Source: a virus (lineage: Duplodnaviria; Caudoviricetes). Taken from it: DNA of 54,646 bases. The stretch covers positions 1-54,646 of IMG/VR virus record IMGVR_UViG_3300044729_003149; one strand, written 5' to 3'. The notes under the pieces were generated by a model, which was not told where the DNA came from, made no database searches, and saw nothing but the letters and a program-made list of their open reading frames with translations. Position numbers and translations under genes: made by a program. Positions 2,287-54,645 of the stretch are shown here, piece after piece (position 1 is the first letter of the stretch; each line of letters starts with the position of its first letter).

Positions 2287-2287
2287 G

Positions 2288-12580: not shown

Positions 12581-12608
12581 GATGGTCTCCTTTGCCGGGT
12601 ATTTACTA

Positions 12609-13387: not shown

Positions 13388-13416
13388 ATTTTACAATATT
13401 TAGATCTTGGTGTCAA
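13388..13416 (-). promoter_or_regulatory. sigma70 promoter with nested TAAATA, upstream of folE
   Basis: TTGACA-17-TAAAAT; TAAATA at 13397-13402 lies inside the spacer. Confidence 0.7.
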
Positions 13417-30614: not shown

Positions 30615-30643
30615 ACTATAACAGGTTATTGTTATAAAGTCAA
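30615..30643 (-). promoter_or_regulatory. sigma70 promoter
   Basis: TTGACT-17-TATAGT with extended -10 TG. Confidence 0.7.
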
Positions 30644-33010: not shown

Positions 33011-33192
33011 GATATCCTTGTGACATTGCTGACCAGGGCGTCTTTGCCATACTGTGCCTGCAGCAACAGTCGTGCCATGGCAGGAGACTTGGCAAATATC
33101 GCGGTGTCAACGCTCATGCTGTAGTCAGGGTGCTTGACCTTGACCTGAGCACGGTACACATGAAATCCTGCAAATATTTCTGAGGCTCTCAT
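33007..33192 (-). CDS. small protein with MRASEI N-terminus
   Basis: 61 aa; ATGA overlaps. Confidence 0.7.
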   Translation of the reverse strand: MRASEIFAGFHVYRAQVKVKHPDYSMSVDTAIFAKSPAMARLLLQAQYGKDALVSNVTRIS

Positions 33193-33647
33193 GATGCCAC
33201 CTTTCTCAATACCATGACATCTGAACCAGATGCAGCTATCTTTGCTCGCTTTTCTGGGCTCAACTTAGACATGTCAAATTGACGATATCCCACACTGTCT
33301 GCAAATCTTTTGATCAAGCTTTGATATACTTTGCTACGACTGCCGCCTTTGGCTGAGAATATGAATACCCTGGGTTGATATCCACGTAGATATTCTCTAA
33401 ATGCTTCTAGCACAGTGCCCAGCACTCTGTTGGCATCTCCTCCGCCAGTCATGTCATAACTGTCGTTGCGTGAGAATTCTACTTCAACAGTACTGGCAGA
33501 CAAGGGAATAAACTTGATGTCAATGTAGCCACCCTGTCTATCGTAAGCACGACCATGCATTTCTTCCGGACCAAAATGGTCGTTCCACTCTATGGGAAAA
33601 CTGGTTTCCGGATCGTACAGTTCGGTGATAAACTCTTGAGATCGCAT
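33189..33647 (-). CDS. putative capsid-targeted internal protein
   Basis: MRSQEFITE N-terminus; FSAKGGSRSKVY motif. Confidence 0.7.
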   Translation of the reverse strand: MRSQEFITELYDPETSFPIEWNDHFGPEEMHGRAYDRQGGYIDIKFIPLSASTVEVEFSRNDSYDMTGGGDANRVLGTVLEAFREYLRGYQPRVFIFSAKGGSRSKVYQSLIKRFADSVGYRQFDMSKLSPEKRAKIAASGSDVMVLRKVAS

Positions 33648-33648
33648 G

Positions 33649-35109
33649 TCAATGGAACATTAAGTAACTGTCTGCCACGTCTCGTCTTTTGGCAGCACGA
33701 TCCCCAGCGCCAGGTTGCACAATCACATTCCATTTTGGTGGGGCGTACACTGGCACTTTTGTAATTGTACCGTCTTTCTCTAGTTTTTCCTTGTAGCCAA
33801 TTGGCCCTGGCTCGGGGATATCCAACATCTGATCATAAGTTATGATACTGTTTATATCTACTTTGTATTGTTGAGCCAGGCGTTGACGGAACGTTTCCAG
33901 TGCTTCTTGACTCTTGAACTGTGTACGACCCTTGGCATCTTTGATCAGCTTGTTGCCGTCACGGGCAATCAAATCAAAGAACATGTCCTTGGGCACAGTT
34001 ACGCCTTGCTTGACCACCTTGCCTGCGGCTTTTTGCAGTTCAACTTTCTTTTCTTGGCCACGCTTGCTGCCTGAGCTAAAATTGATAAGGAAATTTTCTG
34101 GGCTGTCACCGGTGGCCACATCCGCCATTTTTGTATATGCATAAAACATGACGTCAGGATTGGCTTCGGCCACTTTGTATGCTAGATCCAGGTATTCTTT
34201 GCTGAAGAAGTCGCCAGCATCGTGCCAACGCACTACCAGTTGAATACCATGTTTGTCAGTTTTCTTTTTGATAGTGCCAATTTCTTTATTCACTGTGCTC
34301 ATGTAGCCGTCAGGATCGTTCACCAGGAAGTTCAAGGCCTGTGCTGCTGACATAGAGCTGGCCGGGAACATCACATAGCCGCCCTTGCGAGCATAACAGA
34401 ACAGTTGGCAAGCACCTGCACCAGGGCAGGTTGTGATCTCTACAAAGTCGCCAGTATCTTCGTCAACAACAATGCCACTCAAGGCAGGCAGAGTCAGATC
34501 ATAAATGATTTCACCCTCAGTGGCTGACTTCTCCATCTTGGCATTGGTACCAAGAATGGCCTTGGGGCGTGTGGTGATTTGACGAGCTAGATCATCAAGA
34601 TCCCATGCGGTCTCACCATCGTCCATGACAATGGCCTTGATGTTGCTGCCATGAATGATGGGAGCCAGTTTGTCTTTCTTGGTCTTGGTTCCGGTCTTGA
34701 TACGATCTGCATAGGCCTGCAGTTCATCTCGTGGCATGCGACGCTGTGGCGCATTGAGTTTGATGGCTTCGTTTAACTCTAATTCACTTTCGGGAAAAGC
34801 AATATAACTGTCGCCGTTGATGTCGCCAATGCGCACAACAAATACACCGCCTTCGTCGTCGCCTTCATTTTGTCCGATTGACCATCCCATGGCTGCAAGT
34901 GCTTTTTCTGCACGTGGATCTTCATCACCGTGCCACCACTTTGCAGCCAACCGGCGCAGAATTTCTTCTTGGTCAGGCTCTCTATCATCACCAGTGCCAG
35001 GAGCAAATTCATTTAATCCGGCTTGTTGATCTTCAATGTTCAAGACCTTGATGGGAAATCCGCCCAGAGTGCGTCCACGACTTTCTAGTGTAAATTCTTT
35101 AGCTCGCAT
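33649..35109 (-). CDS. modular protein with Gp88-like (radical-SAM-related) C-terminal domain
   Basis: MRAKEFTLE; two LNE breaks; TCPGAGACQLFCYA, VRWHDAGDFFS, FYAYTK. Confidence 0.7.
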   Translation of the reverse strand: MRAKEFTLESRGRTLGGFPIKVLNIEDQQAGLNEFAPGTGDDREPDQEEILRRLAAKWWHGDEDPRAEKALAAMGWSIGQNEGDDEGGVFVVRIGDINGDSYIAFPESELELNEAIKLNAPQRRMPRDELQAYADRIKTGTKTKKDKLAPIIHGSNIKAIVMDDGETAWDLDDLARQITTRPKAILGTNAKMEKSATEGEIIYDLTLPALSGIVVDEDTGDFVEITTCPGAGACQLFCYARKGGYVMFPASSMSAAQALNFLVNDPDGYMSTVNKEIGTIKKKTDKHGIQLVVRWHDAGDFFSKEYLDLAYKVAEANPDVMFYAYTKMADVATGDSPENFLINFSSGSKRGQEKKVELQKAAGKVVKQGVTVPKDMFFDLIARDGNKLIKDAKGRTQFKSQEALETFRQRLAQQYKVDINSIITYDQMLDIPEPGPIGYKEKLEKDGTITKVPVYAPPKWNVIVQPGAGDRAAKRRDVADSYLMFH

Positions 35110-35697
35110 TCAATAACCTCTTTTGAGTCTTTCGTATCTCATTTGATCTGTTGTACGTTTGGGATCAAATGCTGTTTGAAAAGGATCTTCAACCGGTGCT
35201 CGCCAACTGTTGGGATCAGCTCGGTCTAGATTGGTTCCACCTCCACCCTGAGAAATTTTGGGCAGGGGTGCGATCTTGACTGCTGGCGTTTGTGGCATGG
35301 GTGCGGGTTTGACTGCTGGCGTTTGTGGCACAGGTGCAGTCTTGACTGCTGGCGTTTGTGGTACAGTTGTGCCAATATTTTGACTTCTATATTCGTTGGG
35401 TGTTAATTTACGACCAGCTTTTTCATCAGCGCCTAACATATCACCAATACCAAGAAAATTTCCAGCTCGTTGGCTGGCCTTTTGCTGGGCCGACCATCTT
35501 TGAAGAGCTGCACGATCAACTGGTTCTGTTTCCAGTGTGCCGCCACCTAAAATTTCTTTTCTAATAAGTTCAGGAGTTCGTTCAACCCCTCCTATTACTG
35601 GATATTTTGGGGTTACTCCGGTGGCACGCTCGGCATCAATCTGTTTAAAGATTTCATTGTAATCTAAGATTTCACTCACAAACTCTGTAGCTCTCAC
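35110..35697 (-). CDS. putative capsid-targeted protein with proline-rich repeats
   Basis: GTG start giving (M)RATEFVSE; PQTPAVKxAPx x3. Confidence 0.7.
   Translation of the reverse strand: MRATEFVSEILDYNEIFKQIDAERATGVTPKYPVIGGVERTPELIRKEILGGGTLETEPVDRAALQRWSAQQKASQRAGNFLGIGDMLGADEKAGRKLTPNEYRSQNIGTTVPQTPAVKTAPVPQTPAVKPAPMPQTPAVKIAPLPKISQGGGGTNLDRADPNSWRAPVEDPFQTAFDPKRTTDQMRYERLKRGY
35261..35361. repeat. 33-bp tandem repeat x3 (coding)
   Basis: TTGACTGCTGGCGTTTGTGG at 35276, 35309, 35342. Confidence 0.9.
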
Positions 35698-36452
35698 TTG
35701 TTTCTTCCTGATTTCATGTTTGCACACCAGTGAGCCATGCGCTGGCGCTCGCCTGATGAATTTTTTGCAATGCTTCTCAATTTACTTATGGACTGTTTGC
35801 AGTTCACTCCTGCTCGTCGGGCTCTGCCTGGGCGGCTTTTGCCCTTGACTTTACCGTCGGCAAAGTTTTCGTTTAATGAATCCTTCAAGAACTGTTCGCC
35901 AGCGCTAGTTACATACCAATATCCATCGTCATCTACAATATAACCGTTGTCGCTTAAACTGTCTAACACGTTATCATATTCGGAAGTGCGTGATTCATCT
36001 TCTATAAAATCCATACCTAACTTTGTTGCTGTATAGATTGCGTGTAATACAAGAATCTTACCTAAACCTTTACCTCGATATTCAGGATATACTTCGGCGA
36101 TACTACGACCAGTGTCAGCATTATATTGATAAACACCTGCGGGCTCGCCGTCTACTGTCATTGTAGTAGCAAATTTATTACCACCTGATTGAACTGTGAA
36201 ATTGATTTTACTGTTGACTTTACCGTCAGCAAAGTTTTCATTTTGTATTTGACTAGGGCCGTAAACTACAGCATTGGGATTGACACCGTGTTTGGTTTCT
36301 AACTTTCTTATAAGCAACGGAATGTTTTTATTGGGAAAGTTTCTGGCTACCAGTCTAGTGATTGTATTACCGCGATGTTTCCCACGAATATAAACATCCA
36401 CCGGATCATCTGGACCTAAAGCAATTTCACATATAAATTCACTAGCTCTCAT
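35694..36452 (-). CDS. modular protein: capsid-targeting N-terminus, GNAT acetyltransferase domain, basic Cys tail
   Basis: MRASEFICE; VYPEYRGKGLGK (GNAT motif A); NENFADGKV twice. Confidence 0.75.
   Translation of the reverse strand: MRASEFICEIALGPDDPVDVYIRGKHRGNTITRLVARNFPNKNIPLLIRKLETKHGVNPNAVVYGPSQIQNENFADGKVNSKINFTVQSGGNKFATTMTVDGEPAGVYQYNADTGRSIAEVYPEYRGKGLGKILVLHAIYTATKLGMDFIEDESRTSEYDNVLDSLSDNGYIVDDDGYWYVTSAGEQFLKDSLNENFADGKVKGKSRPGRARRAGVNCKQSISKLRSIAKNSSGERQRMAHWCANMKSGRNK
35845..36243. repeat. 30-bp direct repeats flanking the GNAT module
   Basis: TTGACTTTACCGTCRGCAAAGTTTTCRTTT at 35845-35874 and 36214-36243 (2 mismatches, 369 bp apart). Confidence 0.9.
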
Positions 36453-38893
36453 GTTCTCACAGGCCTAGCCATCTTTACTATCACTGCATGCAGTCCAGGA
36501 TGCAGAGGCTGCGGCAGGTCCGACGGTTTGAACCAACCATAGTCTTGGCTTTCTGAATTCAGCCTTGGTTGAAACTCCGTTGGCACAACACCCACAAAGG
36601 TTTGATAATTTTTGTTGCGATTCACTGGTGTGAGTTTGATGGCACCTGTGTAGCCGCTTTCTTCTGCAAGCTCACGACGCACTGTGTCTTCGGCTGATTC
36701 GCCTGAGTCGCGACCACCACCCCAACAGGCCCATACGCCAGGATCATTCACAGTTTCACTGCGTTGCTGCAAACACCAACGGCCTGTGTCCTCGGCCACA
36801 ACAATGCAGCCGGCCGCAAAGGGGCCACTGCTGGTATCGCGTTGTTCCACTGTGCGTGTGGTACCGCCTGCCCCCACATAGATAGCACGGAAGTCCACGC
36901 CAGGATATTCTCGTGCAAGATCCTTGAACACACGTAGATTGCTCATTGAATCATCATACAGCCGCACATGATTGTATTTGCTTGTGTCAAGATAACGTCG
37001 CACCCAAACGGCTTTTTTCTCAGCCGGGATAGCATCGCCCGGCAGGTTACCAGCACGATGCACATGCACACGACTCATGTCTATGCCAAGATCGCTAAAG
37101 GTCTGTAGAAATTCTTGTTTGTTGTCAAAGTCAGCTCGGGCTGTGAGCATGATGACTTCAGCATTGGGATGGTATGCCAGGATGGTCTTGAGCTTGCGTA
37201 TCATGGGCTCAATGGGCTGGCTCTCCTGTCTGAACTTTGCAGCCGATCTAAATTCACCAAAGTCAAACTCTTCGCCTGGTGCCAGCTCGTAAGTGTTGAA
37301 TTCTTGATTGGTGAGCTCACGCACCACCTCACCGTCTTTGACAACACGTATCTTGGCCGTGGTGTGCATCAAGGTGTCATCGATGTCAAATATCACCAAG
37401 TCAGTAGCACCGGCGTCACGATCCTGTTCTACAAAAACTGCACTGTCTTCGCCCATGTTGTGAAAATTTTCAAACAGACCATTGGGTCGGGCAATCTGTG
37501 GGTGCCCTTGACTGTCTGTCTTCAGTTTCAATTTATTGGCTTCGCGGCCAGTCTGTCCGGGTTTGATGTCCACGGTGAGAGCCATTTTGAATCTTGGATC
37601 GTTCTTTTGTTTGGCTGTGGGAATGTATCCTGAAGCTTCAGCAAACATTTCGGGACGAGCATCAGCAAAGTCACGCATGATGATACCGGCCCGAGCATTG
37701 GCTTCGTTTTCCCAGTCTGATCCTGTTCGTCCAGCATCGTGGGGCAAATCGTCTCGCTGATCCTGCCGAGCGTGAGTAAGCTCGTGTGCCAGTGTGCGCA
37801 ACACATCTAGGATGTGTCTTCCATCCACAGACAAATGCATGGCATTGTCTTGCCGGTCATAGCGACCAAAGCTGTGATTTTTTTCCTGCCATTTACTACC
37901 ACGATGAATTATTATCTTGGGAAGTTTTTGTAGTCCCAGTTTTTTGGCAGCAAATTTTGCAAATTCTTTTATGGTTTCTATGTCGCTGCGATCATTTTCC
38001 ACAAACATTTTTGTGGCAGCACCCACGCCATGTGGTGTGGATTGTTCACGCATGCTTTCTCCACCACCGCCATCACCACCACCTCCATCACCGCCGGTGT
38101 CACCACTGTCACTGTAACCAAATCCCGGATACCACCAACCACCCCAGGCATAACGAGTGCGTGACTTGCTGCGAGATTTTTTGCGGCGTTCAACAAGACT
38201 GAGCTCTTGATCACGAGCCTGGTTGCGAGCATCAACTAGACGTTGAATGTAGCCTTGATTACGCAGCATCTTGAACACCAAGTTGTCAACACCAAACTCA
38301 CCCTGCTGTTCAAGACCAGCAGCTCGCATGGTTTTGATTTTGTCCAGCAACTGTTGAGTGCTTTTGGCATCAGAATCATCAATCACAGATTCTATGCGCT
38401 GCACTAGATCTTCGTATTTGCTGCGCACCGCACTGTCGTCTAGATTGGCCTTTTGTCTGCGCGGAACTGACAGCCATTTGTCATGCAACACACTATAGAT
38501 GCCTTGGCTGTGGTGCGGCTGATCACTGGGCTGCACATAGAGTTCAACGTCGTAGCCACCAATGCGGATATTGTGTTCTTGATTGTACTGAAATTTCTTG
38601 GCCTTGAACAGCTCCTGATACACGTCATCATCAGGCATGTTGACCACTAGGTGTAGATCAATGTCACTGTGCGGAGTATAGGTATATGCTGCGTTGCTGC
38701 CAGATATTGTGATGTCTTCAAGATCAAGATCCTGTACACCCATGAACTCTCTAAAGTCCTGTGCTATCAGCAACAGCCGTTCCCGCACATCAGGCTGCAT
38801 TTGTTCATTTTTTTGCCAGATGCGTGGATTGAGCTGATCGTGAAATTTCACAGCATCAGCAAGATTGAATGATTCCAATTGAGAGATGTTCAT
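36449..38893 (-). CDS. multi-enzyme polyprotein: Pol-beta nucleotidyltransferase, HEXXH metallopeptidase, HAD phosphatase, Nudix hydrolase
   Basis: GSN...SDIDLH; AHELTH..ENEANA; FDIDDT..LTAR..YDDS; GGGRDSGESAEDTVRRELAEESG. Confidence 0.85.
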   Translation of the reverse strand: MNISQLESFNLADAVKFHDQLNPRIWQKNEQMQPDVRERLLLIAQDFREFMGVQDLDLEDITISGSNAAYTYTPHSDIDLHLVVNMPDDDVYQELFKAKKFQYNQEHNIRIGGYDVELYVQPSDQPHHSQGIYSVLHDKWLSVPRRQKANLDDSAVRSKYEDLVQRIESVIDDSDAKSTQQLLDKIKTMRAAGLEQQGEFGVDNLVFKMLRNQGYIQRLVDARNQARDQELSLVERRKKSRSKSRTRYAWGGWWYPGFGYSDSGDTGGDGGGGDGGGGESMREQSTPHGVGAATKMFVENDRSDIETIKEFAKFAAKKLGLQKLPKIIIHRGSKWQEKNHSFGRYDRQDNAMHLSVDGRHILDVLRTLAHELTHARQDQRDDLPHDAGRTGSDWENEANARAGIIMRDFADARPEMFAEASGYIPTAKQKNDPRFKMALTVDIKPGQTGREANKLKLKTDSQGHPQIARPNGLFENFHNMGEDSAVFVEQDRDAGATDLVIFDIDDTLMHTTAKIRVVKDGEVVRELTNQEFNTYELAPGEEFDFGEFRSAAKFRQESQPIEPMIRKLKTILAYHPNAEVIMLTARADFDNKQEFLQTFSDLGIDMSRVHVHRAGNLPGDAIPAEKKAVWVRRYLDTSKYNHVRLYDDSMSNLRVFKDLAREYPGVDFRAIYVGAGGTTRTVEQRDTSSGPFAAGCIVVAEDTGRWCLQQRSETVNDPGVWACWGGGRDSGESAEDTVRRELAEESGYTGAIKLTPVNRNKNYQTFVGVVPTEFQPRLNSESQDYGWFKPSDLPQPLHPGLHAVIVKMARPVRT

Positions 38894-41825: not shown

Positions 41826-42488
41826 TTATTTAGCTACCACCTCAATTGGCAGGGTCTTTTTGATGCAGTTGGGCACCACCATGTTGAGCATGAGTACGTC
41901 ATGTTCGCTGTCATGATCAACAAAATCATAGCCTGTGGGCTGGTTAAAAACTGACTGGCCTGTGAGCCGCTTTTTCAGCGCCGGCGTGATCCTGAAGTAT
42001 TCTTTGCGGCTCATGAGAAAATCGCACATGAGTCGACGTTCTTCTGGTGTGTAGCTGCGTTCGCGAAACCAACTGCGAAACTGATGCTGACTTTGACGCA
42101 ACTGCACTCGATCACTGGGTCGAGTCACAGCCGCTTCACGCAGGCTAACAAAATTAAGATAGGGCAACTGCCCGATTTCTGACAACCAGGTCACGTCGTT
42201 GCTGTAGATGTTTTGACTGCCATAGTACACATTGCGTTTGTAAGGCACTGGCGCGGCCTTGAGACGATTCATGAGATCCATGCAGTTATCGTAGCGTTGC
42301 TGCACAAAGCCATGACTCCATCTGCCCGGCGTTGATGTGCGAGCTTCGGGATGGTGTGTACAAAACATGTTGTTGATAAACCTAGCACTGAGGCCACGCA
42401 TGAAAAAACTGTAGGTGATATCAAAACTCAAACAGTACTGATACCGTCCAAAGAACAGGCTGCTGCGATCTTCCAGAATCAGCTTCAT
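41826..42488 (-). CDS. hypothetical protein
   Basis: 220 aa; coupled to clpA. Confidence 0.7.
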   Translation of the reverse strand: MKLILEDRSSLFFGRYQYCLSFDITYSFFMRGLSARFINNMFCTHHPEARTSTPGRWSHGFVQQRYDNCMDLMNRLKAAPVPYKRNVYYGSQNIYSNDVTWLSEIGQLPYLNFVSLREAAVTRPSDRVQLRQSQHQFRSWFRERSYTPEERRLMCDFLMSRKEYFRITPALKKRLTGQSVFNQPTGYDFVDHDSEHDVLMLNMVVPNCIKKTLPIEVVAK

Positions 42489-44731
42489 GACAGTTCCCGC
42501 TGGTTGGAGTTCAATCTTGGCAGTTCTGGCTGTGGTACCATAAACTCGATGTTGTCTCCCACCATGTGAGCTGCTACCACACAGTCTTCCAGTCTATCAA
42601 ACAGAATTTTCTTGCTGAGAGGCACACGCACCAGCTCATCAATTTTTCTACCCAGGGGTCTTGCACCCATTTTGGGATCATAACCTTTGTCTGCCAGGTG
42701 TTCAATCACACCTTCGGTGGCCACAAATTTGATCTGTTTGGCTGCCAGACTCTGAGTCAGCTCGTCTATGAATTTGACCACTACCTTCTTCACTGCCAGG
42801 CGATCCAGTTTTGAGAATTTGCATACCTTGTCAATTCTGTTGCGAAGTTCTGGGCGGAAGAATTCCTTGAGAGCTCGATCATCCTCGCCGGTTTTTTCCA
42901 GACTTCCAAACCCAATGGCGTTGACTTCGCTGGCTTCGCTGCCTAGATTTGATGTCATGATTATGATACAGTTTTTGACATTGACCTTTTTGCCATTGGT
43001 GCTGGTAATGATCCCCTCGTCCAAGATCTGCAACAGCACATTGCTGACATCAGGATGTGCCTTTTCAATTTCGTCAAACAGCACCACACTGAAGGGATTT
43101 TTGCTGAGATCAGACACCAAGCGACCGCCGCCCACGTTGCCATCTTCAAAGCCCACATAGCCAGGTGGTGCACCAATTAGACCTGCCACACTGTGACGTT
43201 CTTGATATTCACTCATGTCATATTTCAGTAGAGTCATGTCAAGATTTTCAGCCAACAGCTTGGCCAGTTCTGTTTTGCCTGTGCCCGTGGGGCCTAGAAA
43301 CAGGAACGAAGCCATGGGACGTCGTTGACTGCCAATGCCAGCCATGCTCACATAGATTCGATCCAGCACTGAATCCACAGCACTGTCCTGTCCGTACAAT
43401 CGGGTCTTGACATTGCTTTCTAGATCTGCCACTCTGGTTGTACGCTGGTGATCCATGCTGTCAATGGGCACACCGGTCATGCGAGCCACCTGCTGCTTGA
43501 TCATTGCTTCAGTGATGGTGACATTGCCTTGGTCTTTCACACGTTCACGTGCGCAGGCAGCGTCAATGATGTCAATGCTTTTGTCAGGATTCTTGCGATC
43601 AGTAATGTAGCGGTTGGCCAGACGCACAGCGGCTGTCATGGCCTCGGTGTCAATCATGACATTGTGAAAAGTTTCCAGTCGGGGCGCAACACCAATCAAG
43701 ATCTGTTCTGTGGTGTCAGCATCAGGCTCGTCAATGCCCATGCGATAGAATCTACGCATCAAGGCACGATCTTTTTCAAAGCTTTCGTAGTATTCTTCCC
43801 AGGTAGTGCTGGCAATGACCTTGATGCTGCCTTTGGTAATAGCAGGCTTGAGCATGTTGGCAAAGTCCAGACTACTGTTGCTGCCAGCACCGGCGCCGCG
43901 CATGGTGTGTGCTTCGTCTACAAAAAGAACGCAGTTCTTCTTGGCCTCCAAGGCCGAAATCACTGCGCGAAACTTTTCTTCAAAGTCGCCGCGATACTTT
44001 GATCCTGCCAGCAAACTGCCAATTTCCAGACTCCAAACTTCGTTGTCACGTAGAAATTCTGGCACACGTCCGGCCACAATTTCCTGAGCCAGGCCATCCA
44101 CGATGTGTGTTTTGCCCACTCCAGGATCTCCCACCATGAGCACGTTGGCCTTGAATCTGCGAGCCAACACAGTGATCATTTCTGACAGCTCGTTGCTGCG
44201 ACCAATCATGGGCTCCAGTTGGTCTTTTTTGGCCCGTGCGGTGAGACTGGTACAGTATTCTGACAGGATCTCGTCGGCCTGACTGTGACTCATTCCGGTT
44301 TCGCTGGCGCGATAATTGTTGTGCCAAAATTCCACAAACTCCTGTTTTTTCAAACCATGTTTGAGCAAGAAATACTGTGCATGGCTGTTGCTTTCGGCCA
44401 TGATTGATAGATAGAGATCTATGAGATTCATGCTGCGACGTCCGGTAAACATGACCTGAACGTTGGCACGATTGAAAATACGCTCCAGAGCGTGAGTCTT
44501 TTTGGGTTCGACGCCGGGCTTGACCAAGCTCATGAGACTGTTGAGATAGGTATCTACTTCGGCGTCTAGGAGATCAGCATCTATGCCAAAACGCTGAGTG
44601 ATTTTTCTAAATGCCGGATATCGAATCAAGGCCAGCAGCACATGTTCGGTAGTTACATATTCATGTGTCTTTTGCTGCGCAATTTGCACAGCTTCACTGA
44701 CAATGTGTTCAATTTCTGCAGAAGGATTCAT
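42485..44731 (-). CDS. clpA: ClpA-type AAA+ unfoldase
   Basis: N-domain HEYVTTEHVLLAL; GDPGVGKT and GPTGTGKT Walker A; GAPPGYVG; IGF loop; no ClpB middle domain. Confidence 0.92.
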   Translation of the reverse strand: MNPSAEIEHIVSEAVQIAQQKTHEYVTTEHVLLALIRYPAFRKITQRFGIDADLLDAEVDTYLNSLMSLVKPGVEPKKTHALERIFNRANVQVMFTGRRSMNLIDLYLSIMAESNSHAQYFLLKHGLKKQEFVEFWHNNYRASETGMSHSQADEILSEYCTSLTARAKKDQLEPMIGRSNELSEMITVLARRFKANVLMVGDPGVGKTHIVDGLAQEIVAGRVPEFLRDNEVWSLEIGSLLAGSKYRGDFEEKFRAVISALEAKKNCVLFVDEAHTMRGAGAGSNSSLDFANMLKPAITKGSIKVIASTTWEEYYESFEKDRALMRRFYRMGIDEPDADTTEQILIGVAPRLETFHNVMIDTEAMTAAVRLANRYITDRKNPDKSIDIIDAACARERVKDQGNVTITEAMIKQQVARMTGVPIDSMDHQRTTRVADLESNVKTRLYGQDSAVDSVLDRIYVSMAGIGSQRRPMASFLFLGPTGTGKTELAKLLAENLDMTLLKYDMSEYQERHSVAGLIGAPPGYVGFEDGNVGGGRLVSDLSKNPFSVVLFDEIEKAHPDVSNVLLQILDEGIITSTNGKKVNVKNCIIIMTSNLGSEASEVNAIGFGSLEKTGEDDRALKEFFRPELRNRIDKVCKFSKLDRLAVKKVVVKFIDELTQSLAAKQIKFVATEGVIEHLADKGYDPKMGARPLGRKIDELVRVPLSKKILFDRLEDCVVAAHMVGDNIEFMVPQPELPRLNSNQRELS

Positions 44732-49804: not shown

Positions 49805-50230
49805 CTAGCTCGCGTATTTATTTAGATGATCACACACAATCTTGGCCCACTTTTCTGCATCTTTTTCTGTGATGCGAAAATCACAAGTGTTGGGAGCCTG
49901 AAATACAGCATCTGTGTCAGCATAGCTGCTGTGGCTTACAGTGTCCATCCATACAGTGATGTCTGCTGCGTATGTGTCGCGTTGTTGCTGCAACGGCGCT
50001 ACAAAATCACAGATCACAAACACAGTTTCAGCTGAATCAGCCATTTCGCGCATTCTTGTGCTCTGTCTCACACGCCCCGACTCGCTGAAATCCCAGTCAT
50101 TGTATTTGCGGCGTACTTGATCAGCATTGAACCAAGTGACTTGATCTGCACCCAAACGTGCAACCAGTGCTGCGGCCAATGTGGTTTTGCCTGCGCCGGG
50201 CAGGCCCATGATCAATATTCTTCGAGCCAT
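49805..50230 (-). CDS. P-loop kinase (adenylylsulfate kinase-like, short)
   Basis: GLPGAGKTT, NADQVR, DFSESGR, DFVAP. Confidence 0.75.
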   Translation of the reverse strand: MARRILIMGLPGAGKTTLAAALVARLGADQVTWFNADQVRRKYNDWDFSESGRVRQSTRMREMADSAETVFVICDFVAPLQQQRDTYAADITVWMDTVSHSSYADTDAVFQAPNTCDFRITEKDAEKWAKIVCDHLNKYAS

Positions 50231-50865
50231 GGATGTTGTTTCAAGATGTATTCAGCAGCGGCTTGGTGCGCTGAGTGCATGGGATGCAAATTCTTACTGA
50301 TATCATGTCCTTGACGCCGACTCCAATTCAAGAAATTTGCATCATCAAAATCAGTCACACAATCACGTATTCGTTTTTGCAATGACACAAGATGTTGCTT
50401 GCTGTTCCAACGTTGTTCCCACAACAAATCATCCATGGCAGTCATTACAAAAGGAATGTTGTGACTCTTGAGCAAAGCACAGACAGTGGAAATCACAGCA
50501 AGACTCTGCAGTTGATCACGATACTGTGAATGTAAATCACGATAGTAAACTGTGGCCAAGTCAGATTCAGTTGTGGGTCTCAAGGTAGACCACTGTGCTT
50601 TACCTGATGCCTGAAAATCATGACGATCAATCCAGGTCCAGGCTATGACAAAAATTGATTGATCATTTGAGTGTATTTCCCGCAGCACAGTATCAAAAAT
50701 CTGCATGTTGCCCACGCCCGGTCGGGCATGGCATTGATATTCATACCCCAACTGTTGAGCCAACAATGCAGGCCATGTGTGTGTGCTGGGTTGCAGTCCC
50801 TGTGTGGCTGGTTGATCAAGATCACTGCCGTAGACAAAACTGCATCCAAAACTTTTGAGTTTCAT
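50212..50865 (-). CDS. SGNH/GDSL-like protein (paralogue 8)
   Basis: FGCSFVYG, GVGN, VIAWT, LHP...AH. Confidence 0.65.
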   Translation of the reverse strand: MKLKSFGCSFVYGSDLDQPATQGLQPSTHTWPALLAQQLGYEYQCHARPGVGNMQIFDTVLREIHSNDQSIFVIAWTWIDRHDFQASGKAQWSTLRPTTESDLATVYYRDLHSQYRDQLQSLAVISTVCALLKSHNIPFVMTAMDDLLWEQRWNSKQHLVSLQKRIRDCVTDFDDANFLNWSRRQGHDISKNLHPMHSAHQAAAEYILKQHPWLEEY

Positions 50866-50898: not shown

Positions 50899-51387
50899 CT
50901 ATTTTCCTGCCTTGGCCAGAGCCGCGCCTTTGTTGAAACTGGGACTCCAACTGTTGGGATCACGCTGTTTGGTCTTGAACCAGCTGTAGCCGGCACGATG
51001 TCCTGAGCAGTCTTTGGTGCACTGACTGCCCAGAAAGTAGAGTTCGTCCAGCTGTTCTCGTCCTTCAGGCAACACCAGTTCCGGTGTGTCGCTTTGATAG
51101 GTGCGATTCTGAACCACTGTTTTGAATTTCAGCACATTGCGTCCAGTGCTGCGAATACCCAGACTGATGCCAGTGTCAGGATCGCGGATCCACATCTTTT
51201 GTCCTGGCGGCACCTGTGCCAGTTTGTCTGCGATACTGGGCAGTTTGCGCAGGGCTTGATCAACGTCGTTGGGATCTATTTCTCTAAAATAGGTCTGTTC
51301 AATCACATGCTCGTCTACATCTACTGTGAGATCGCCTATGCGGATGCGGCCGGCCTGTGCTTCTTTAACTAGTTCGCAGGCTCGCAT
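50899..51387 (-). CDS. modular protein with capsid-targeting-like N-terminus
   Basis: MRACELVKE; LDE then CTKDCSGHRAGYSW module. Confidence 0.7.
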   Translation of the reverse strand: MRACELVKEAQAGRIRIGDLTVDVDEHVIEQTYFREIDPNDVDQALRKLPSIADKLAQVPPGQKMWIRDPDTGISLGIRSTGRNVLKFKTVVQNRTYQSDTPELVLPEGREQLDELYFLGSQCTKDCSGHRAGYSWFKTKQRDPNSWSPSFNKGAALAKAGK

Positions 51388-51389: not shown

Positions 51390-51797
51390 TCAGTCAGTGA
51401 CTGGGCCGCCTTCGACCCAGGCATCACAGGTGCGCAGAGCAGCGCATTTGAATTTGAGAAATTTGCAGTAGCCCAGATCACCAGCATCAATGGTGTCGTG
51501 CGGGTCTGACCCTGGTTCACCGCCAATGCCCTTGGCAATGCAGCTCAGCATTTTTTCTGTGATGTCAAACGCAGCACAGTTGCCGCAGCGATTGGCCTTG
51601 ACTGATTCAATGTCGTCGGTGTTCCACTTGTCAGCCAGCTCGGCCCAGTATTCTTCGTTGGGCTCGTTGGGATTGAGTGGACCGTAGTGATATTCGTCAA
51701 TGGCTTTTTGACGATTTTTAAGATTGAGTTCAATGCTCTGTGTGGCTGGAGGACAGCCACGACTCACAGATTCTACTAGGTTGATTAGATTTCTCAT
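51390..51797 (-). CDS. Cys-rich protein with capsid-targeting-like N-terminus
   Basis: MRNLINLVE; CPPATQ, CGNC, C..KFKC...RTC.AW. Confidence 0.75.
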   Translation of the reverse strand: MRNLINLVESVSRGCPPATQSIELNLKNRQKAIDEYHYGPLNPNEPNEEYWAELADKWNTDDIESVKANRCGNCAAFDITEKMLSCIAKGIGGEPGSDPHDTIDAGDLGYCKFLKFKCAALRTCDAWVEGGPVTD

Positions 51798-52156
51798 TGT
51801 TTGCGTTCTGGTTTTGTGGCTACATTTATTGCTGCACCACGTCGTTCAGGATTGGGATCTTCTCTGCGTTTTTTGGCAGCAGCGGTCTTGCGACCTTTCT
51901 TGCCCAGACTATGTGCCTTGCTGGCAGGCAAGCATTTGGGTTTGCCTTCGCCCTCGCTGCGTCCACCGCAGGCTCCGCGTATTTTACCATCGGGGCCAAA
52001 GCGCACCCATTTTTGCTTGAACCACTTTTTGAGATCTTCTTCCAGTTCTTGTTCGCTCACGGGCACACAATTAGGCACCATGCGGTCGCCTTTTTTCTTC
52101 ATGCCTCGCTGCTGATAACCTTTCCAGCAGGCTTCAAGAATGTCGCGATATCTCAT
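51794..52156 (-). CDS. two-module basic protein
   Basis: MRYRDILE-ACWKGY...VPNCV; LEE-DLKKWFKQKWV...PKCLP. Confidence 0.75.
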   Translation of the reverse strand: MRYRDILEACWKGYQQRGMKKKGDRMVPNCVPVSEQELEEDLKKWFKQKWVRFGPDGKIRGACGGRSEGEGKPKCLPASKAHSLGKKGRKTAAAKKRREDPNPERRGAAINVATKPERKQ

Positions 52157-52539
52157 TGAGCTTGTGCAGAAACTGCAACAGTAAACTCGCCGCCCACGGG
52201 TTGATCAAATCGCCAACCTTTTTGTCTAAACATGTTGTAGTAAGGACCAATCACTTTGCTGACATTTTGAGGGCTCACAACGCCGTCCCAGTTAGATTTT
52301 TGTGAATCCATGGTGCCTGGATGATTTTGAATCACAGTCACTGATCCGTCTTGATTGACTTTGCTAGTAAATCCATATGTTGGGGTTGTGCTAAAATAAC
52401 TGTTCAATTTGTCAACAATTTCTTCGGCGTATTTGGCTGTGGCTTGTGAATCAACTTGCACATTGGCAGATGGCACAGCCTCGGCCATGGAAGCCTGTTC
52501 AATCAAATCAGCATATTTTCTAAAAAATCTTGGATCCAT
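52153..52539 (-). CDS. hypothetical protein
   Basis: MDPRFFRKYADLIE...MAE leader. Confidence 0.7.
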   Translation of the reverse strand: MDPRFFRKYADLIEQASMAEAVPSANVQVDSQATAKYAEEIVDKLNSYFSTTPTYGFTSKVNQDGSVTVIQNHPGTMDSQKSNWDGVVSPQNVSKVIGPYYNMFRQKGWRFDQPVGGEFTVAVSAQAQ

Positions 52540-52557: not shown

Positions 52558-54645
52558 TTACTTTTTACTTTTGTTGCCCCAGTTGGCAGCACCTTTTTTA
52601 CGGCACTGCACCAGAGCACCTGAAGCATAGGCACTGGGCCAAACTTTGTAACGACTGCGTACCTTGTGATAGCAGGCATCTTGCTTTTCTGCCAGCACAC
52701 GATCTTCATAAGCAGCACCGCCACACTCAGGACATTGAGTGCGTTGTGATTCTTTTACATTGTATTTCTTCTTTAATTCTGCTGCCTTGGCATAACGCTC
52801 TTGGTCAGGAAGATCGTATGTGGCCTTTAATTCTTTGTAGTAGTCGGGATCAGGCAAGCCAGACTTCTTTCTTAATTCTTGATGACGCTGGTGTAGTTTA
52901 TCTTGCACAGAGCCTTCCGCCATACCTTGCTCTGACAACCATATCTTTTTAGAGGGCACTGTGCTACCAGCGCACGATGGGTCTGTATCAACCAATTGTT
53001 GAATAGTGTCAATCATTTTTTCTGCTTTTTGTTTACCAACAGGGGTGTTGATTTGTCCAGAATTGGCCAATGATTGTAATTGCGAGTGCAGGGCACCATA
53101 TTGTCGTTGTCCAGGAGTTTGTTTGAAACTGCCTTCCGCCACACCTTCTTGCATATACTTTTTCTGTAATTCCAAATCAGCAGGAGTTGCCTTCCTGATT
53201 AGATTAAGATATTTGTCTACCGGAACTGCTTTTATTTCTGTAGGCTTGATACCTTTTACTCCAGGTATTGAATAAAATTCCCTGTCATGGGCACCTTGAA
53301 CGAATTGAGGTTTACCATCGGGCCCATTGAATGGCACCTTGTGTAGATATACATTTTCACCTTTTCTAATATTTCCTTTGAACAACACCATTTGTGGGTC
53401 GTTTGGAAACATACCTGTATCACTGCCAGGAGTAGTAAGTCCCATTGCTATAGCAACCTTAGGATCACTGGTAGCGTAGATAGCATTTTGATTACTACCT
53501 GCGGCGCCGCCTGTGTCTACAGATTGGCGTGGTTCTAACATAGGAATCTTTTGTCTTGACCCGTGCCACAGATATTTTTGTTCGGAGCCTTCCGCCACAC
53601 CTTCTTTTAGACTTGTTATATAATTTACAGCAGATTTCAAACCTCTAAATTCTTTTACAAAAGCACGACCTGGTCCATGTCCATAAGCAATATATAGACC
53701 TTCAGAGGTGTCGGGCTGATTCTTTATTACATACCCGATCATTTCTTTGCCGCGAAATACATGCCATTCTTTTTCATGTCCGTCATCGTGAACTTTGTCA
53801 ACAGTGACATCGGGAGTTATGGAGCCTTCCGCCACATCTTGTTGACCTTTCATGGCCTGCAGCAGCGCACGGGCAACCACACGATCTTTTTCTTGTTCTT
53901 CATTGTCCAAATTTGCATAATTGATTTTCATCAATTTTGCTCGTTGCTGAAGTTTGGCATCTAGTTTACCAGCTTGTCTTAATTTTTCTGTATCATCAAA
54001 TTGATCAGGATTTTGCACAAATTTCTGCGCAGTGACATTCCAACCTTTGTGAATGGCATCTGAAATTTTTTCAATGTCAGTCACACCTGCATCTATCATT
54101 TTTTTGGCGTATGCTGCGGACATCAGATTTGCCTGCCAACCAAAAGTGTTCCCTGGCGCACTGCGGCCATAACCGTATGCGTTGTCTAGTGCTTCGTCAC
54201 TGATAGTTGCCAATTGTTGTATGCTTAGTTCCTGGGCAGAGCCTTCTGCCACATCTTCATATGCATAATCATCATCTGCTGTGAGACTGAGTGCATACTT
54301 TACATATTTTTTGTTATTGTCCAGTGCCTTTTCTAATTCTAAAATACCATATGGTGTGAATGTATCACGCTTCCAATCCCAGTAACCAGGAATGTCACTA
54401 ATCTCCGCAGCTATTTGTTGAATTTTAGCTTTGACTTTTGGGTCAAGTCCAAACATGTCTTCTGCCACACGCTGTTGATATTCTTGTTCGTCGTCGCTGC
54501 CAGCGTAGTCATTGTGTTCAACATCGCTGCTGTGAAAACTTTTGCGACCATGATTGTAGAGATCTACCACCACAAAGTCACCGTTGCGACCAATGTCTAC
54601 CACATCGCCAGTTTTGCCCCGGAACTCCACATTGCCAGTGATGAT
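52558..54645 (-). CDS. repeat-delimited polyprotein (RyR-like, ART-like and unknown modules), 5' end beyond window
   Basis: frame open to right edge; six V/MAE(G/D) junctions; IHKGW..YANLDNEEQEKDR; LWHGS..IYATSD; DACYHKVRSRYKVWPSAYASGAL tail. Confidence 0.8.
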   Translation of the reverse strand: MITGNVEFRGKTGDVVDIGRNGDFVVVDLYNHGRKSFHSSDVEHNDYAGSDDEQEYQQRVAEDMFGLDPKVKAKIQQIAAEISDIPGYWDWKRDTFTPYGILELEKALDNNKKYVKYALSLTADDDYAYEDVAEGSAQELSIQQLATISDEALDNAYGYGRSAPGNTFGWQANLMSAAYAKKMIDAGVTDIEKISDAIHKGWNVTAQKFVQNPDQFDDTEKLRQAGKLDAKLQQRAKLMKINYANLDNEEQEKDRVVARALLQAMKGQQDVAEGSITPDVTVDKVHDDGHEKEWHVFRGKEMIGYVIKNQPDTSEGLYIAYGHGPGRAFVKEFRGLKSAVNYITSLKEGVAEGSEQKYLWHGSRQKIPMLEPRQSVDTGGAAGSNQNAIYATSDPKVAIAMGLTTPGSDTGMFPNDPQMVLFKGNIRKGENVYLHKVPFNGPDGKPQFVQGAHDREFYSIPGVKGIKPTEIKAVPVDKYLNLIRKATPADLELQKKYMQEGVAEGSFKQTPGQRQYGALHSQLQSLANSGQINTPVGKQKAEKMIDTIQQLVDTDPSCAGSTVPSKKIWLSEQGMAEGSVQDKLHQRHQELRKKSGLPDPDYYKELKATYDLPDQERYAKAAELKKKYNVKESQRTQCPECGGAAYEDRVLAEKQDACYHKVRSRYKVWPSAYASGALVQCRKKGAANWGNKSKK
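52910..54474. repeat. six dispersed about 18-20-bp direct repeats encoding (G/D)VAEG
   Basis: consensus (+) GCCTTCYGCCAYAYCTT starting at 52912, 53131, 53587, 53824, 54241 and (divergent copy) 54457. Confidence 0.9.

Follow-up and report, generated by a model that had tools for sequence, protein, structure and literature searches.

The internal proteins of phage T4 are diverse defence proteins for which the capsid-targeting sequence (CTS) is described as the sole common feature (PMC3012670). The prohead protease cleaves IPI-III and Alt, the latter an ADP-ribosyltransferase, behind a Glu, and these small, diverse cargoes are injected with the DNA (PMC3012670, PMC5694885, PMC8442874, PMC7824862). 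Cleavage C-terminal to Glu is reported for the prohead proteases of T4 and the giant phages; for the inner-head proteins of phiKZ, 201phi2-1 and SPN3US the site is A/S/G-x-E, with cleavage behind the Glu and in many cases at more than one place in a protein, yielding ejection proteins (PMC5694885). Polyvalent proteins combine 2–15 unrelated domains, including ART, GNAT and ParB-like domains, and are predicted to travel with the DNA and then to be split by processing into individual units (Iyer et al. 2017, PMC5512222). Among T4-type phages, the short conserved DNA motifs of PeSL cassettes flank non-essential genes, and recombination at them leads to insertion, deletion and replacement between close relatives (PMC2839356, PMC4122927).

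Here we describe a gene from an uncultured jumbo phage of lake water, about 350 kb in size, which falls into the T4 superfamily close to Vibrio phage 2.275.O, PA5oct and the Rak2-like phages. The gene lies at the end of the stretch of DNA analysed (54,646 nt, hereafter the window) and encodes a polyprotein whose segments, or modules, are joined by a short repeated linker; a literature search found no published description of such a system. Near-identical proteins from other contigs begin with a short leader that by its pattern resembles the one ending in hydrophobic-x-Glu in T4 IPI-III and Alt. In T4, however, each gene supplies a single cargo and each protein is cut once, whereas here 3–11 cargoes share a reading frame, with the signal repeated between them and fixed at the DNA level. 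With polyvalent proteins the gene shares the presence of mutually unrelated modules, eight of them, in one phage polypeptide. Processing of polyvalent proteins is ascribed to a zincin-like MPTase within the protein, but Pfam scans detected neither an MPTase nor any other peptidase domain in the window ORF or in the polyproteins of nine relatives; the main text of that study does not contain the word "linker" and does not describe a uniform cleavage or recombination linker (PMC5512222). In phiKZ, 201phi2-1 and SPN3US, the extra cuts trim the propeptides of single proteins and not shuffled arrays, and the parts of PMC5694885 that deal with these cuts report no repeat at the DNA level.

In common with PeSL cassettes and the glycine-rich motifs of gp38, the locus has a short motif that holds the breakpoints where segments have been inserted, deleted or replaced between close relatives. 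PeSL, as its descriptions present it, is an intergenic promoter plus a stem-loop terminator (PMC2839356, PMC4122927); in contrast, the linker is coding and in frame, 142 of the 143 occurrences of its exact 16-mer lying in the GVAEGS phase of an open frame of at least 100 aa. The gp38 adhesin also has short conserved motifs inside the gene, between interchangeable variable segments, but it is portrayed in PMC3157838 as one folded domain with four short segments, an account that includes neither cleavage nor unrelated whole domains. The initial annotation had called the array integron-like. Integrons use the tyrosine recombinase IntI and structured attC sites between separate genes. The likeness stands as an analogy, since both are arrays of promiscuous cassettes with a repeated recombination site at the boundaries and with expression starting at one end; it does not extend to an attC-like structure, because the repeat here is 17–18 nt long, lacks dyad symmetry, is in frame and is translated.

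Results

A polyprotein gene divided by an in-frame repeat

The contig ends within the polyprotein gene (Table 1), whose 5' end is therefore open. Comparison with three near-identical proteins from other contigs (P0004–P0006), which begin MIIDHLFNS.LTE↓SKSGL..., indicates that about 25 N-terminal residues are absent from the window ORF. A 17-nt repeat, AAGRTRTGGCRGAAGGC, occurs inside the ORF in five exact copies, all on the minus strand and all in frame; shuffles gave an expected 0.01 matches, and none of 100 shuffles reached six. A sixth copy, RVAED, is missing from the list of repeats with at most two mismatches because three of its positions differ. The initial annotation was thus right in counting six in-frame copies in one ORF (five prove exact and one degenerate), in reading them as RVAED, DVAEGS (twice), GVAEGS (twice) and GMAEGS, and in giving spacings (216, 417, 237, 456 and 219 nt) that are all divisible by 3.

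Each of the four small genes adjoining downstream starts with a short leader (…SMAE↓A, MRYRDILE↓A, MRNLINLVE↓S and MRACELVKE↓A) that ends in hydrophobic-x-Glu, a weak motif that is frequent by chance. Two of the four consist of mini-modules that are fused into polyproteins elsewhere, as seen in comparison with G001 (154175–156199) and S-RIM2.

Table 1. Features of the polyprotein locus, in window positions; ↓ marks the predicted cut.
Feature	Position	Strand	Remarks
Polyprotein gene	52558–54645	−	695 codons + stop (52558–52560); 5' end open
m0 (aa 1–62)	54460–54645	−	acidic; ends in degenerate linker RVAE↓D
Degenerate linker copy RVAE↓D	54457–54471	−	CGT GTG GCA GAA GAC; 3 mismatches
m1 (aa 63–134)	54244–54459	−	without family; GC 0.375
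Linker copy DVAE↓GS	54241–54257	−	0 mismatches
m2 (aa 135–273)	53827–54243	−	family C1; weak RyR-domain-like C-terminal stretch
Linker copy DVAE↓GS	53824–53840	−	0 mismatches; contig diverges here, loose end 53846
m3 (aa 274–352)	53590–53826	−	without known family; shuffled-module family C3
Linker copy GVAE↓GS	53587–53603	−	0 mismatches; loose ends 53584, 53586, 53603
m4 (aa 353–504)	53134–53589	−	YLWHGSR motif; predicted ADP-ribosyltransferase-like fold; family C0
Linker copy GVAE↓GS	53131–53147	−	0 mismatches; loose end 53147
m5 (aa 505–577)	52915–53133	−	without family
Linker copy GMAE↓GS	52912–52928	−	0 mismatches; loose end 52932, contig ends 52903/52932
m6a (aa 578–632)	52750–52914	−	ends NVKE↓S, hydrophobic-x-Glu junction without repeat
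m6b (aa 633–695)	52561–52749	−	Cys-rich KVWPSAYASG mini-domain; PHROG 727/38880/3477
Downstream small gene	52153–52539	−	
Downstream small gene	51794–52156	−	
Downstream small gene	51390–51797	−	
Downstream small gene	50899–51387	−	
Further repeat copy outside the ORF	12380–12396		2 mismatches

The modules are unrelated to one another

The segments between repeats had been described as unrelated and domain-sized, and they are: they span 62–152 aa, and the best pair among the eight modules reaches only E 0.47. The AT-richness noted for several of them is confirmed in part, for m1 to m6a (GC 0.375–0.438) and not for m0 and m6b (0.495–0.497), the window having a GC of 0.468 and its ORFs of at least 140 aa a mean of 0.469 (sd 0.029). 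A Pfam scan of the window ORF at E ≤ 1 returned nothing but a chance-level YppG match, and the hints of an RyR domain in m2 have E values of 0.1–2.1 only. The AlphaFold2 model of m4 (pLDDT 66.8) suggests an ADP-ribosyltransferase-like domain: nearly all of the best 50 rows of a wide VIA search are ART-fold chains, the best match (9ld3_A) aligning 80 residues at an rmsd of 2.3 with Z 7.6, which is below the tool's caution line of 8. The best Foldseek match of m4 has E 0.06, and PDB and Pfam sequence searches with m4 gave no match.

Two mini-modules make up the C-terminal end. At the m6a/m6b junction, blastn blocks stop at ORF nt 1897 and resume at about 1912–1958; the m6a mini-module stands alone in L182–L189. 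The m6b mini-domain is present in 365 cyanophage records, lies within S-RIM2 SWTG_00073 and S-P4 gp060, and is N-terminal in a G001 polyprotein. S-P4 gp060, a cyanophage homologue built as a string of mini-modules, was labelled "structural protein" by its depositor.

Cutting at the linkers gave 721 segments, of which the 542 of at least 20 aa fall into 95 recurrent families and 447 singletons. A Pfam family could be assigned to almost none of the segments; domains recognised in relatives' modules are GNAT, ParB-like, NUDIX, sigma-70 r4 and M48. Module pI is mixed, 55% being above 8, unlike the T4 internal proteins, which are known as uniformly basic.

Modules are exchanged at the linker

The order m0-m1-m2-m3-m4-m5-m6 in the window becomes m0-m1-m2-m6 in P0005, m0-new-m1-m2-m3-new-m5-m6 in P0004 and m0-new-new-m2-new-m5-m6 in P0006. 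These alleles differ from the window by whole modules only, and each difference falls at a linker. The degenerate linker that ends m0 is the site of an extra 68-aa module in P0004 and P0006; m1 (98–100% identity in P0004 and P0005) is missing in P0006, m3 in P0005 and P0006, and m5 (100% identity in P0004 and P0006) in P0005, while m4 is missing in P0005 and has another module in its place in P0004 and P0006. In a global comparison, m1–m6 are 86–100% identical wherever alleles share them, and m0 is just 52–71% identical because the contig end cuts the window's copy.

The same holds across a wider set, which comprises 159 distinct ORFs with at least two linkers in 176 records. The 20 members of family C0, the largest, have 18 distinct left and 17 distinct right neighbours, the six of C1 have five and six, and the five of C3 five and five; m3 is 97.8% identical in DNA to its counterpart in L135, yet the neighbours differ on both sides. 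The relatedness of flanks is lost exactly at QGVAE↓G, DNA homology beginning or ending within the linker. Among 88 blastn HSPs of at least 100 nt, 55 begin and 81 finish no more than 20 nt away from one of the seven cuts or from the ORF end, a zone that covers 13.7% of positions. Contig pieces from four lake metagenome runs start, stop or diverge at linkers, as do all six loose ends among those listed for 52900–54300; the window's stretch itself is contained in 20 runs from 20 coded studies, with no RNA run among those listed. The polyprotein is matched by 3701 proteins at E ≤ 1e-5, and most of the 120 matches listed cover about 20–25% of the query, roughly one module. The single-module gene L140 has a leader and a linker in front of its module and a linker plus two residues behind it, an arrangement that favours cleavage at the linker.

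Modules are therefore exchanged, gained and lost among these phages by recombination within a short in-frame repeat, as had been proposed for this array: module sets vary between homologous loci and the breakpoints lie in the linker. The mode of exchange looks like homologous recombination at this repeat, and since recombination takes place inside an in-frame element, every recombinant keeps the reading frame.

The linker is constrained as DNA and as peptide

The linker that ends a module reads K-Q-G-(V/M)-A-E↓G-S and is encoded by a near-invariant CAA GGT GTG GCG GAA GGC, a purine-rich element with four GG runs. In the window, Val is GTG in five of five copies, Glu is GAA in six of six, P1' Gly is GGC in five of five and Ala is GCG in four and GCA in two of six; the Ser codon is variable. 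Across 76 distinct G[VM]AEG linkers, from loci chosen independently of their DNA, GCG is used in 92% (background 7%), GTG in 87% (18%), GGT at P4 in 93% (46%) and GGC at P1' in 71% (27%). Third positions of the linker are 0.63–1.0 identical, against 0.58 and 0.67 (invariant columns, adjacent module). Searching five genomes with the back-translated pattern QG[VMI]AEG gave 16 matches, 12 of which are one identical 17-mer. The uniformity of the linker DNA, with rare codons strongly preferred, thus goes well beyond what codon usage or the neighbouring modules would lead one to expect, and the suspected constraint on synonymous positions is borne out. The peptide is also under selection, since Ser is retained although its codon switches between TCN and AGY.

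Among 155 linkers, conservation of the peptide is one-sided and confined to P6–P1' (K-Q-G-V-A-E↓G), with V in 117 and A in 122; as the regular expression fixes the P1 Glu and restricts P4–P2 and P1', only preferences within the allowed sets and the free positions P6, P5 and P2' are informative. Five of eight Tat-like motifs, all in modules of relatives and not of the window, follow a canonical cut by 3–7 aa, at residues 34, 110, 465, 609 and 994 of their ORFs, so that four of the five are deep inside. All five of these modules exceed the TIGR01409 cut-off (21.7–28.8 bits against 16.7), with the signal starting at module residue 1–6, and one of the five reaches the Pfam TAT_signal cut-off of 22.7. 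Cleavage is predicted to follow the linker Glu. The initial annotation had the modules released by cuts after VAE, to which the one-sided P6–P1' conservation, the internal Tat signals and, in the lineage, a gp21-family protease and the L-x-E↓ sites of capsid maturation point indirectly.

Prohead protease and leaders in the lineage

The window, 16% of a genome, contains no detected protease or capsid genes, nor were these found in any of five partial relatives (G001–G005, 20–75% complete). Of five near-complete relatives (about 350 kb) reached through linker or module loci, four (G006–G009) have both PF03420 and PF07068 matches, those to the gp21 family (Peptidase_S77) at E 2.8e-28 to 4.8e-26; neither family was matched in the fifth (G010, 99% complete, four linkers). 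The capsid-protein propeptides of G006–G009 carry L-[SAK]-E↓[SN] just before the presumed mature N-terminus, a segment that we assign on the model of T4 gp23, and their scaffold proteins carry LVAE↓G. The linker site G-V-A-E↓G differs from the capsid-protein site L-x-E↓S/N, and hence a different protease is possible. Five cultured relatives that share this head module have none of the linkers, and in G006 the polyprotein genes (near 132–136 kb) are far from the head genes (near 13–19 kb).

CTS-like leaders are present in 27 of 106 polyprotein ORFs and in 80 of 720 other ORFs (odds ratio 2.7, p 1.5e-4), being fairly common (11%) in the other ORFs of the same loci too. The leader of P0004–P0006, MIIDHLFNS.LTE↓S, resembles the T4 CTS (PMC8442874) by pattern only. 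The late-promoter-like word ATAAATA occurs within 70 nt upstream of 21 of the 106 polyprotein ORFs (its reverse complement upstream of one), 85 having none directly upstream, and is nearly as frequent before other ORFs of the same loci (102 of 722).

Discussion

We lean towards an explanation in which the gene encodes a capsid-targeted effector polyprotein that is cut by the prohead protease and whose cassettes are reshuffled by recombination at the linker DNA. The precursor, with its T4-CTS-like N-terminal leader, would be built into the prohead, where a gp21-type protease would cleave behind the leader's Glu and behind that of every linker; the resulting modules, of about 10 kDa, would remain inside the head and reach the next host together with the DNA. 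The injected cargo may include the ADP-ribosyltransferase-like domain found here and, in relatives, GNAT, ParB-like, NUDIX and M48 domains, and for some of the relatives' modules export through the Tat system of the host might follow. [quoted passage not shown] Against this explanation stand the difference between linker and capsid-protein site, the distance of the polyprotein genes from the head genes, the mixed module pI, the CTS-like leaders of other ORFs, the low number of late-promoter-like words upstream, the lack of a protease or capsid match in G010 and the lack of linkers in the cultured relatives.

Much of this evidence can also be read as that of a true polyprotein processed in the cytoplasm of the infected cell by another Glu-specific protease, of phage or host, whose modules take effect while that infection is still under way, in some cases in the periplasm following Tat export, with neither packaging nor injection. 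Tat signals right after the cuts need just a free N-terminus and a working Tat system in a living cell, a need that cytoplasmic processing satisfies equally; moreover, the genes sit among replication and auxiliary genes and not head genes, the linker is unlike the capsid-protein site, G010 has linkers with no gp21 or gp23 family match detected, and cultured relatives have gp21 and no linkers. However, no peptidase family appears in the Pfam annotations among the 120 matches listed, and the only peptidase in our own scans was a Tat-tagged M48 domain in a single module. The enrichment of CTS-like leaders in the polyprotein ORFs, the fit of the conserved P3 and P1 to prohead protease specificity as outlined in PMC5694885, a module size (about 100 aa) equal to that of T4 internal proteins and the structural label of the cyanophage relative also argue against cytoplasmic processing, which we consider unlikely.

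We give less credence still to an uncleaved string of beads in which the linker serves as a flexible spacer and as DNA microhomology for in-frame swaps. In its favour, what has been demonstrated is limited to the shuffling and the conservation at the DNA level, and in the gp38 adhesins of T-even phages glycine-rich motifs separate interchangeable segments with no cleavage described (PMC3157838). Four Tat signals that lie 110–994 residues into their ORFs, 3–7 residues after a Glu, would nevertheless be useless in an uncleaved protein; a plain spacer needs no one-sided conservation with fixed charge and size classes, and the peptide is kept while its Ser codon varies, which speaks for selection on the peptide. 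Could the RTG codon of the linker, preceded by AAGG, instead be an internal translation start, the modules being made separately from one mRNA? Of 155 linkers, 134 have Val (GTG) or Met (ATG) at P3, and AAGG stands just upstream of RTG in the window's copies; but the other 21 have Ile or Leu there, Ile codons at least not being common starts, and AAGG ends 1 nt before RTG, too close for a Shine-Dalgarno sequence, the established spacing of which far exceeds 1 nt. The modules, furthermore, are not separated by stop codons, and initiation does not explain the conservation of P6–P4 and Glu, so that internal initiation is highly improbable. Scarcely any weight attaches to an assembly artefact, with chimeric contigs joined at the short repeat. 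Assembly from short reads does break off at repeats and can join the wrong pieces there, and Logan contigs break at linkers, but 17 nt is shorter than the usual assembly k-mers, and independent samples yield 159 ORFs of this architecture, the reading phase being the same throughout. Within module families frames stay intact and residues are conserved, the linkers lie on one strand only in complete genomes of 345–364 kb, and the window's stretch recurs in 20 coded studies.

Within the capsid-targeted polyprotein reading, a more far-reaching version is possible, and we put it forward tentatively: the 18-nt linker may be dual-coded, the peptide acting as the cut signal of a packaged effector precursor and the DNA as a selected recombination signal, for which the rare codons GTG and GCG would be kept in 87–92% of copies. 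The lake jumbo phage population would then share hundreds of cassettes, any of which could be spliced in frame into any array, as in a "domain integron" without an integrase, and the products would include effectors re-addressed to the host periplasm by Tat after cleavage.

If the model holds, a single element of six residues and 18 nt would solve two problems for these phages: many small host-directed proteins would be loaded into the capsid in fixed proportion through one targeting signal, and the arsenal would be renewed quickly, the reading frame never being broken. The sequence rule QG-V-A-E↓G would delimit thousands of unannotated domains in metagenomes, and the segments cut out by it would form a catalogue of candidate anti-defence and takeover proteins with known cloning boundaries. 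The shuffling and the DNA constraint hold even if packaging is wrong, and they represent natural in-frame domain shuffling by microhomology, comparable in its logic to exon shuffling and traceable in time series of the same lakes.

The polyprotein ORF and its repeats

The polyprotein ORF (695 codons) lies at the right end of the window and runs past the contig edge; judged from three near-identical proteins of other contigs, whose true start is MIIDHLFNS.LTE↓S (the arrow marks the predicted cut after Glu), about 25 N-terminal residues are missing. The window, an IMG/VR virus fragment of 54,646 nt, contains T4-like genes, a T4-type DNA polymerase among them, and its completeness is estimated at 16% of a genome, so that the full genome would be about 340 kb. 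As the initial annotation had observed, the ORF contains a repeat, AAGRTRTGGCRGAAGGC, in five copies with 0 mismatches (0.01 expected) and in a sixth, degenerate copy encoding RVAED, the spacing between copies being 216, 417, 237, 456 and 219 nt. The ORF is divided by its junctions into eight modules (m0 to m6, the last comprising m6a and m6b), which are mutually unrelated. Pfam, searched over the whole ORF, gave no family for any of them, and the last module was the sole match in a search of PHROGs.

Elsewhere in the window, two lone linker-like sites lie away from the array (see table). At least six ORFs on the minus strand begin with a G(C/D)S(F/W) block, which by eye reads as SGNH/GDSL hydrolase-like and suggests a paralogous family among the six ORFs tabulated.

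Coordinates of features in the window and in related loci
Feature	Location	Strand	Remarks
Polyprotein ORF	window 52558-54645	-	modules m0-m6
111-aa ORF	window 12359-12691	-	terminates ...QGMAE↓SNR; DNA 12380-12396, 2 mismatches to repeat
519-aa ORF	window 21353-22909	-	RGVAE↓GG near residue 195
Six ORFs with G(C/D)S(F/W) start	window 6936-7682, 13413-14159, 17892-18626, 18657-19400, 30632-31348, 50212-50865	-	N-termini read by eye
Three consecutive leader genes	window 33189-33647, 33649-35109, 35694-36452	-	starts MRSQEFITE, MRAKEFTLE, MRASEFICE
NUDIX and polynucleotide-kinase-like parts, 814 aa	window 36449-38893	-	PHROG search
ClpA/B-like AAA+ protein, 748 aa	window 42485-44731	-	phrog_4871, E 1.4e-235
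Two adjacent polyprotein genes	G001 (relative's genome) 151865-154171, 154175-156199	-	second opens with m6b, then MAEGS
Tat-signal module with Peptidase_M48 domain	L064 (relative's locus) 2410-3141	-	E 1.8e-8; directly after CTS-like leader and linker
Two parts of major capsid gene	L194 (G007:C1:191817-195806), frames 1435-1743, 1747-2649	-	split by TAA
Mini-module string, S-RIM2 (NC_020859.1)	L199 1778-3148		
Mini-module string, S-P4	L205 550-2139		depositor label 'structural protein, T4 GC0119'

Spread of the linker

A scan of IMG/VR with the exact 16-mer of the repeat returned at least 119 loci. Among the matches listed, 142 of 143 occurrences fall in the phase that reads GVAEGS, inside an open frame 100 aa or longer, and 95 of the 119 loci have a frame with two or more linkers; that single 16-mer matches are mostly due to chance is ruled out by the 142/143, which mark a coding linker. 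Our ORF collection, drawn from the 16-mer loci, from loci found with window peptides and from one 262-kb relative read whole, holds at least 159 distinct ORFs with two or more linkers, from 176 records. Cut at their linkers, these give 721 modules (median 102 aa); segments of 20 aa or more number 542 and fall into 95 recurrent families plus 447 singletons. When the polyprotein was used as a protein query, 3701 proteins were found at E<=1e-5; among the 120 listed, the matched part is mostly no more than some 20-25% of the query, roughly one module. Where these 120 are named, the name is 'hypothetical' or derives from some other module (GNAT, ParB-like), and their precomputed Pfam entries include NUDIX and sigma-70 region 4. 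The linker is found in none of five cultured phages related by capsid or polymerase. Two polyprotein genes stand side by side in one relative (G001, see table); m6b, last in the window, is first in the second of these, and thus one module can be first or last.

Exchange of modules at the linker

The window allele, m0-m1-m2-m3-m4-m5-m6, can be set beside those of the three near-identical proteins: m0-m1-m2-m6 (P0005), m0-new68-m1-m2-m3-new57-m5-m6 (P0004) and m0-new68-new96-m2-new74-m5-m6 (P0006). Modules m1-m6 are 86-100% identical wherever alleles share them; the identity of m0 is lower (52-71%) because the window copy is cut at the contig end. All differences among the four start and stop at a linker, and two of the three near-identical alleles carry an extra module at the window's RVAE↓D site. 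The family of m4 (n=20 members) shows 18 distinct neighbours on the left and 17 on the right; the family of m2 (n=6) has 5 left and 6 right, and that of m3 (n=5) has 5 and 5. One locus carries m3 at 97.8% identity with both neighbours different.

Of the 88 HSPs in the DNA comparison, 55 begin and 81 end no more than 20 nt from one of the seven junctions or from the ORF end, against an expected share of positions of 13.7%; a typical HSP begins 13 nt upstream of a cut and stops 1-7 nt past one. In the module flanks displayed, QGVAE↓G is the exact edge of homology. All-against-all protein HSPs of the 159 ORFs gave a moderately sharp result only, with 15.3% of ends at most 3 aa from a linker (4.1% for random positions) and a median distance of 35 aa (53 at random), because redundant and partial HSPs, and linkers missed by the regex, dilute the signal. 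Twenty lake-water metagenome runs contain the window's stretch, and in four of them contig pieces start and stop at linkers; among the loose ends listed, all six between 52900 and 54300 are at a linker, and there are 40 more beyond these. None of the runs listed for the stretch is an RNA data set. The joints 52931>53582 and 53603>53823 do not count as deletions, their shorter side (20-22 nt) being the repeat alone. Module content thus varies with breakpoints at the repeat, as the initial annotation had anticipated: cassettes are exchanged at a DNA-conserved, in-frame linker. The comparison with integrons is a metaphor.

Constraint on the linker DNA

Codon counts over 76 distinct G[VM]AEG linkers, whose loci were chosen independently of DNA, show Ala (P2) encoded by GCG in 92% of cases against 7% in the background of the same ORFs, Val (P3) by GTG in 87% (18%), Gly (P4) by GGT in 93% (46%) and Gly (P1') by GGC in 71% (27%). 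Ser (P2') is encoded by TCN, not AGY, with AGT in 8% of linkers and 40% of the background. The fully back-translated QG[VMI]AEG pattern has 16 matches across five relatives' genomes, always on one strand, and 12 of the 16 share an identical 17-mer. Third-position identity in the m4 family is 0.58 in invariant four-fold columns, 0.67 in two-fold columns and 0.63-1.0 in linker columns. The linker DNA is constrained beyond the peptide, and the suspicion that its codon conservation exceeds codon usage was well founded. Such uniformity can arise by selection on the DNA as a recombination substrate, and it can equally arise by concerted evolution driven by recombination itself.

By eye, four GG runs can be picked out in the linker DNA GGTGTGGCGGAAGG (for example window 53587-53603, minus strand), separated by loops of 3, 1 and 2 nt; the retained rare codons GTG and GCG maintain runs 2 and 3.

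Candidate cargo modules

An exhaustive structural search with the AlphaFold2 model of m4 (pLDDT 66.8) placed ADP-ribosyltransferase (ART)-fold chains in nearly all of the best 50 rows, the best match being a Tpt1/KptA-like chain (Z 7.6, rmsd 2.3, 80 residues aligned). Foldseek alone was weak, the m4 sequence profile found nothing in the PDB below E 0.5, and an ESM Atlas search returned unnamed clusters only, DUF6886 covering 12% of one. The modelled m4 is termed ART-like, not ART, because of its pLDDT, its Z score and the weak Foldseek result. The assignment of m2 as a RyR domain was not upheld, matches reaching only E 0.1-2.1 over 25 residues, which leaves faint hints of RyR likeness.

Probable cleavage at the linker

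The linker is conserved on one side only, with K, Q, G, V, A, E ↓ G at P6-P1' and background level beyond, under a regex that fixed P1, restricted P4-P2 and P1' to small residue sets and left P6, P5 and P2' wholly free. A hydrophobic P3 and a Glu at P1 are what T4-type prohead proteases recognise; both these enzymes and their giant-phage counterparts cleave on the C-terminal side of Glu (PMC5694885). The collected ORFs contain eight distinct twin-arginine motifs, five of them 3-7 residues past a canonical cut (ORF positions 34, 110, 465, 609 and 994); all five modules score above the NCBIfam TAT_signal_seq cut-off, the signal lying at module residues 1-6, and one of them carries a Peptidase_M48 domain. 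Since a Tat signal functions only at a free N-terminus, the Tat modules would have to be released at the linker, the predicted cut. A single-module gene (locus L140) retains a leader and linker ahead of its module, which is followed by a linker and two further residues. One-sided conservation and post-cut Tat signals agree, if indirectly, with the release after VAE proposed in the initial annotation, and the linker is probably cleaved.

Protease, capsid and possible packaging

Five near-complete genomes (343-364 kb), reached via linker or module loci, were queried for head genes. Four (345-364 kb) encode both Peptidase_S77 (the family of the T4 prohead protease gp21) and a gp23 capsid protein; as in T4, the genes follow the order acidic core protein, protease, scaffold and capsid protein. 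In one of them, G006, the gp21 homologue lies near 16876-17325. In these four, the capsid-protein propeptide ends in L-[SAK]-E↓[SN], directly ahead of a segment that we take, by comparison with T4 gp23, to correspond to the mature capsid N-terminus, and the scaffolds contain LVAE↓G. Their capsid protein shares 65-70% identity with its counterparts in Vibrio phage 2.275.O, PA5oct and Rak2-like coliphages; for the window polymerase, identity to the enzymes of Phosso, Atu_ph07 and Serratia BF is 42-50%. Neither protease nor capsid families were found in five partial relatives (0/5; G001-G005). The fifth near-complete genome, G010 (the 343-kb record behind locus L021), gave no match to Peptidase_S77 or Gp23; it has four canonical DNA linkers, all on one strand, and could represent a lineage further removed that shares the linker. 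In a 99%-complete relative, one in-frame TAA interrupts the major capsid gene (L194, see table), which may point to recoding, to a broken gene or to an error.

The leader M-[RKN]-x-x-[ED]-[FLI]-[FIV]-x-E opens 27 of 106 polyprotein ORFs, compared with 80 of 720 among other ORFs. In pattern it is similar to the T4 capsid-targeting sequence (CTS) given in PMC8442874. CTS-like leaders also occur on the window's four small genes downstream of the polyprotein and on a further three between 33.2 and 36.5 kb. Only 1 of 108 polyprotein ORFs has the exact T4 late promoter TATAAATA upstream; ATAAATA precedes 21 of 106 and is nearly as frequent before neighbour ORFs, so it is not specific. The mini-modules of window m6b and window ORF 51794-52156 recur, strung together, in cyanomyovirus proteins of the structural gene region, where the junctions are x-E-G (…QMEG, …EFEG, …QNEG).

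Several observations count against the full packaging model. The linker differs from the capsid-protein site, the polyprotein genes are remote from the head cluster, and G010 has linkers without detectable gp21 or gp23. Moreover, no head genes were found within the window, module charge is mixed, and both the CTS-like leaders and the late-promoter word are found on other genes too. A cytoplasmic protease would meet the Tat argument equally well. With the T4-like head genes of the four relatives, the Glu-directed sites and the leaders on the other side, cutting by the prohead protease and packaging into the head are plausible, at slightly better than even chances.

In mostly open-access literature, we found no phage papers on VAEGS, GVAEGS or QGVAEG and nothing relevant on phage polyproteins with prohead-protease cleavage, linkers or ejected proteins; the main texts searched contain no description of a repeated dual-use linker of this kind. 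The nearest known systems are T4 internal proteins with a CTS, polyvalent proteins (PMC5512222), shuffling of the PeSL and gp38 types, and head proteins of phiKZ-like phages that are cut at multiple sites. T4 Alt, an injected ART (PMC7824862), would be a natural counterpart of the ART-like m4; only by analogy might the modules exchanged at the linker be injected as well.
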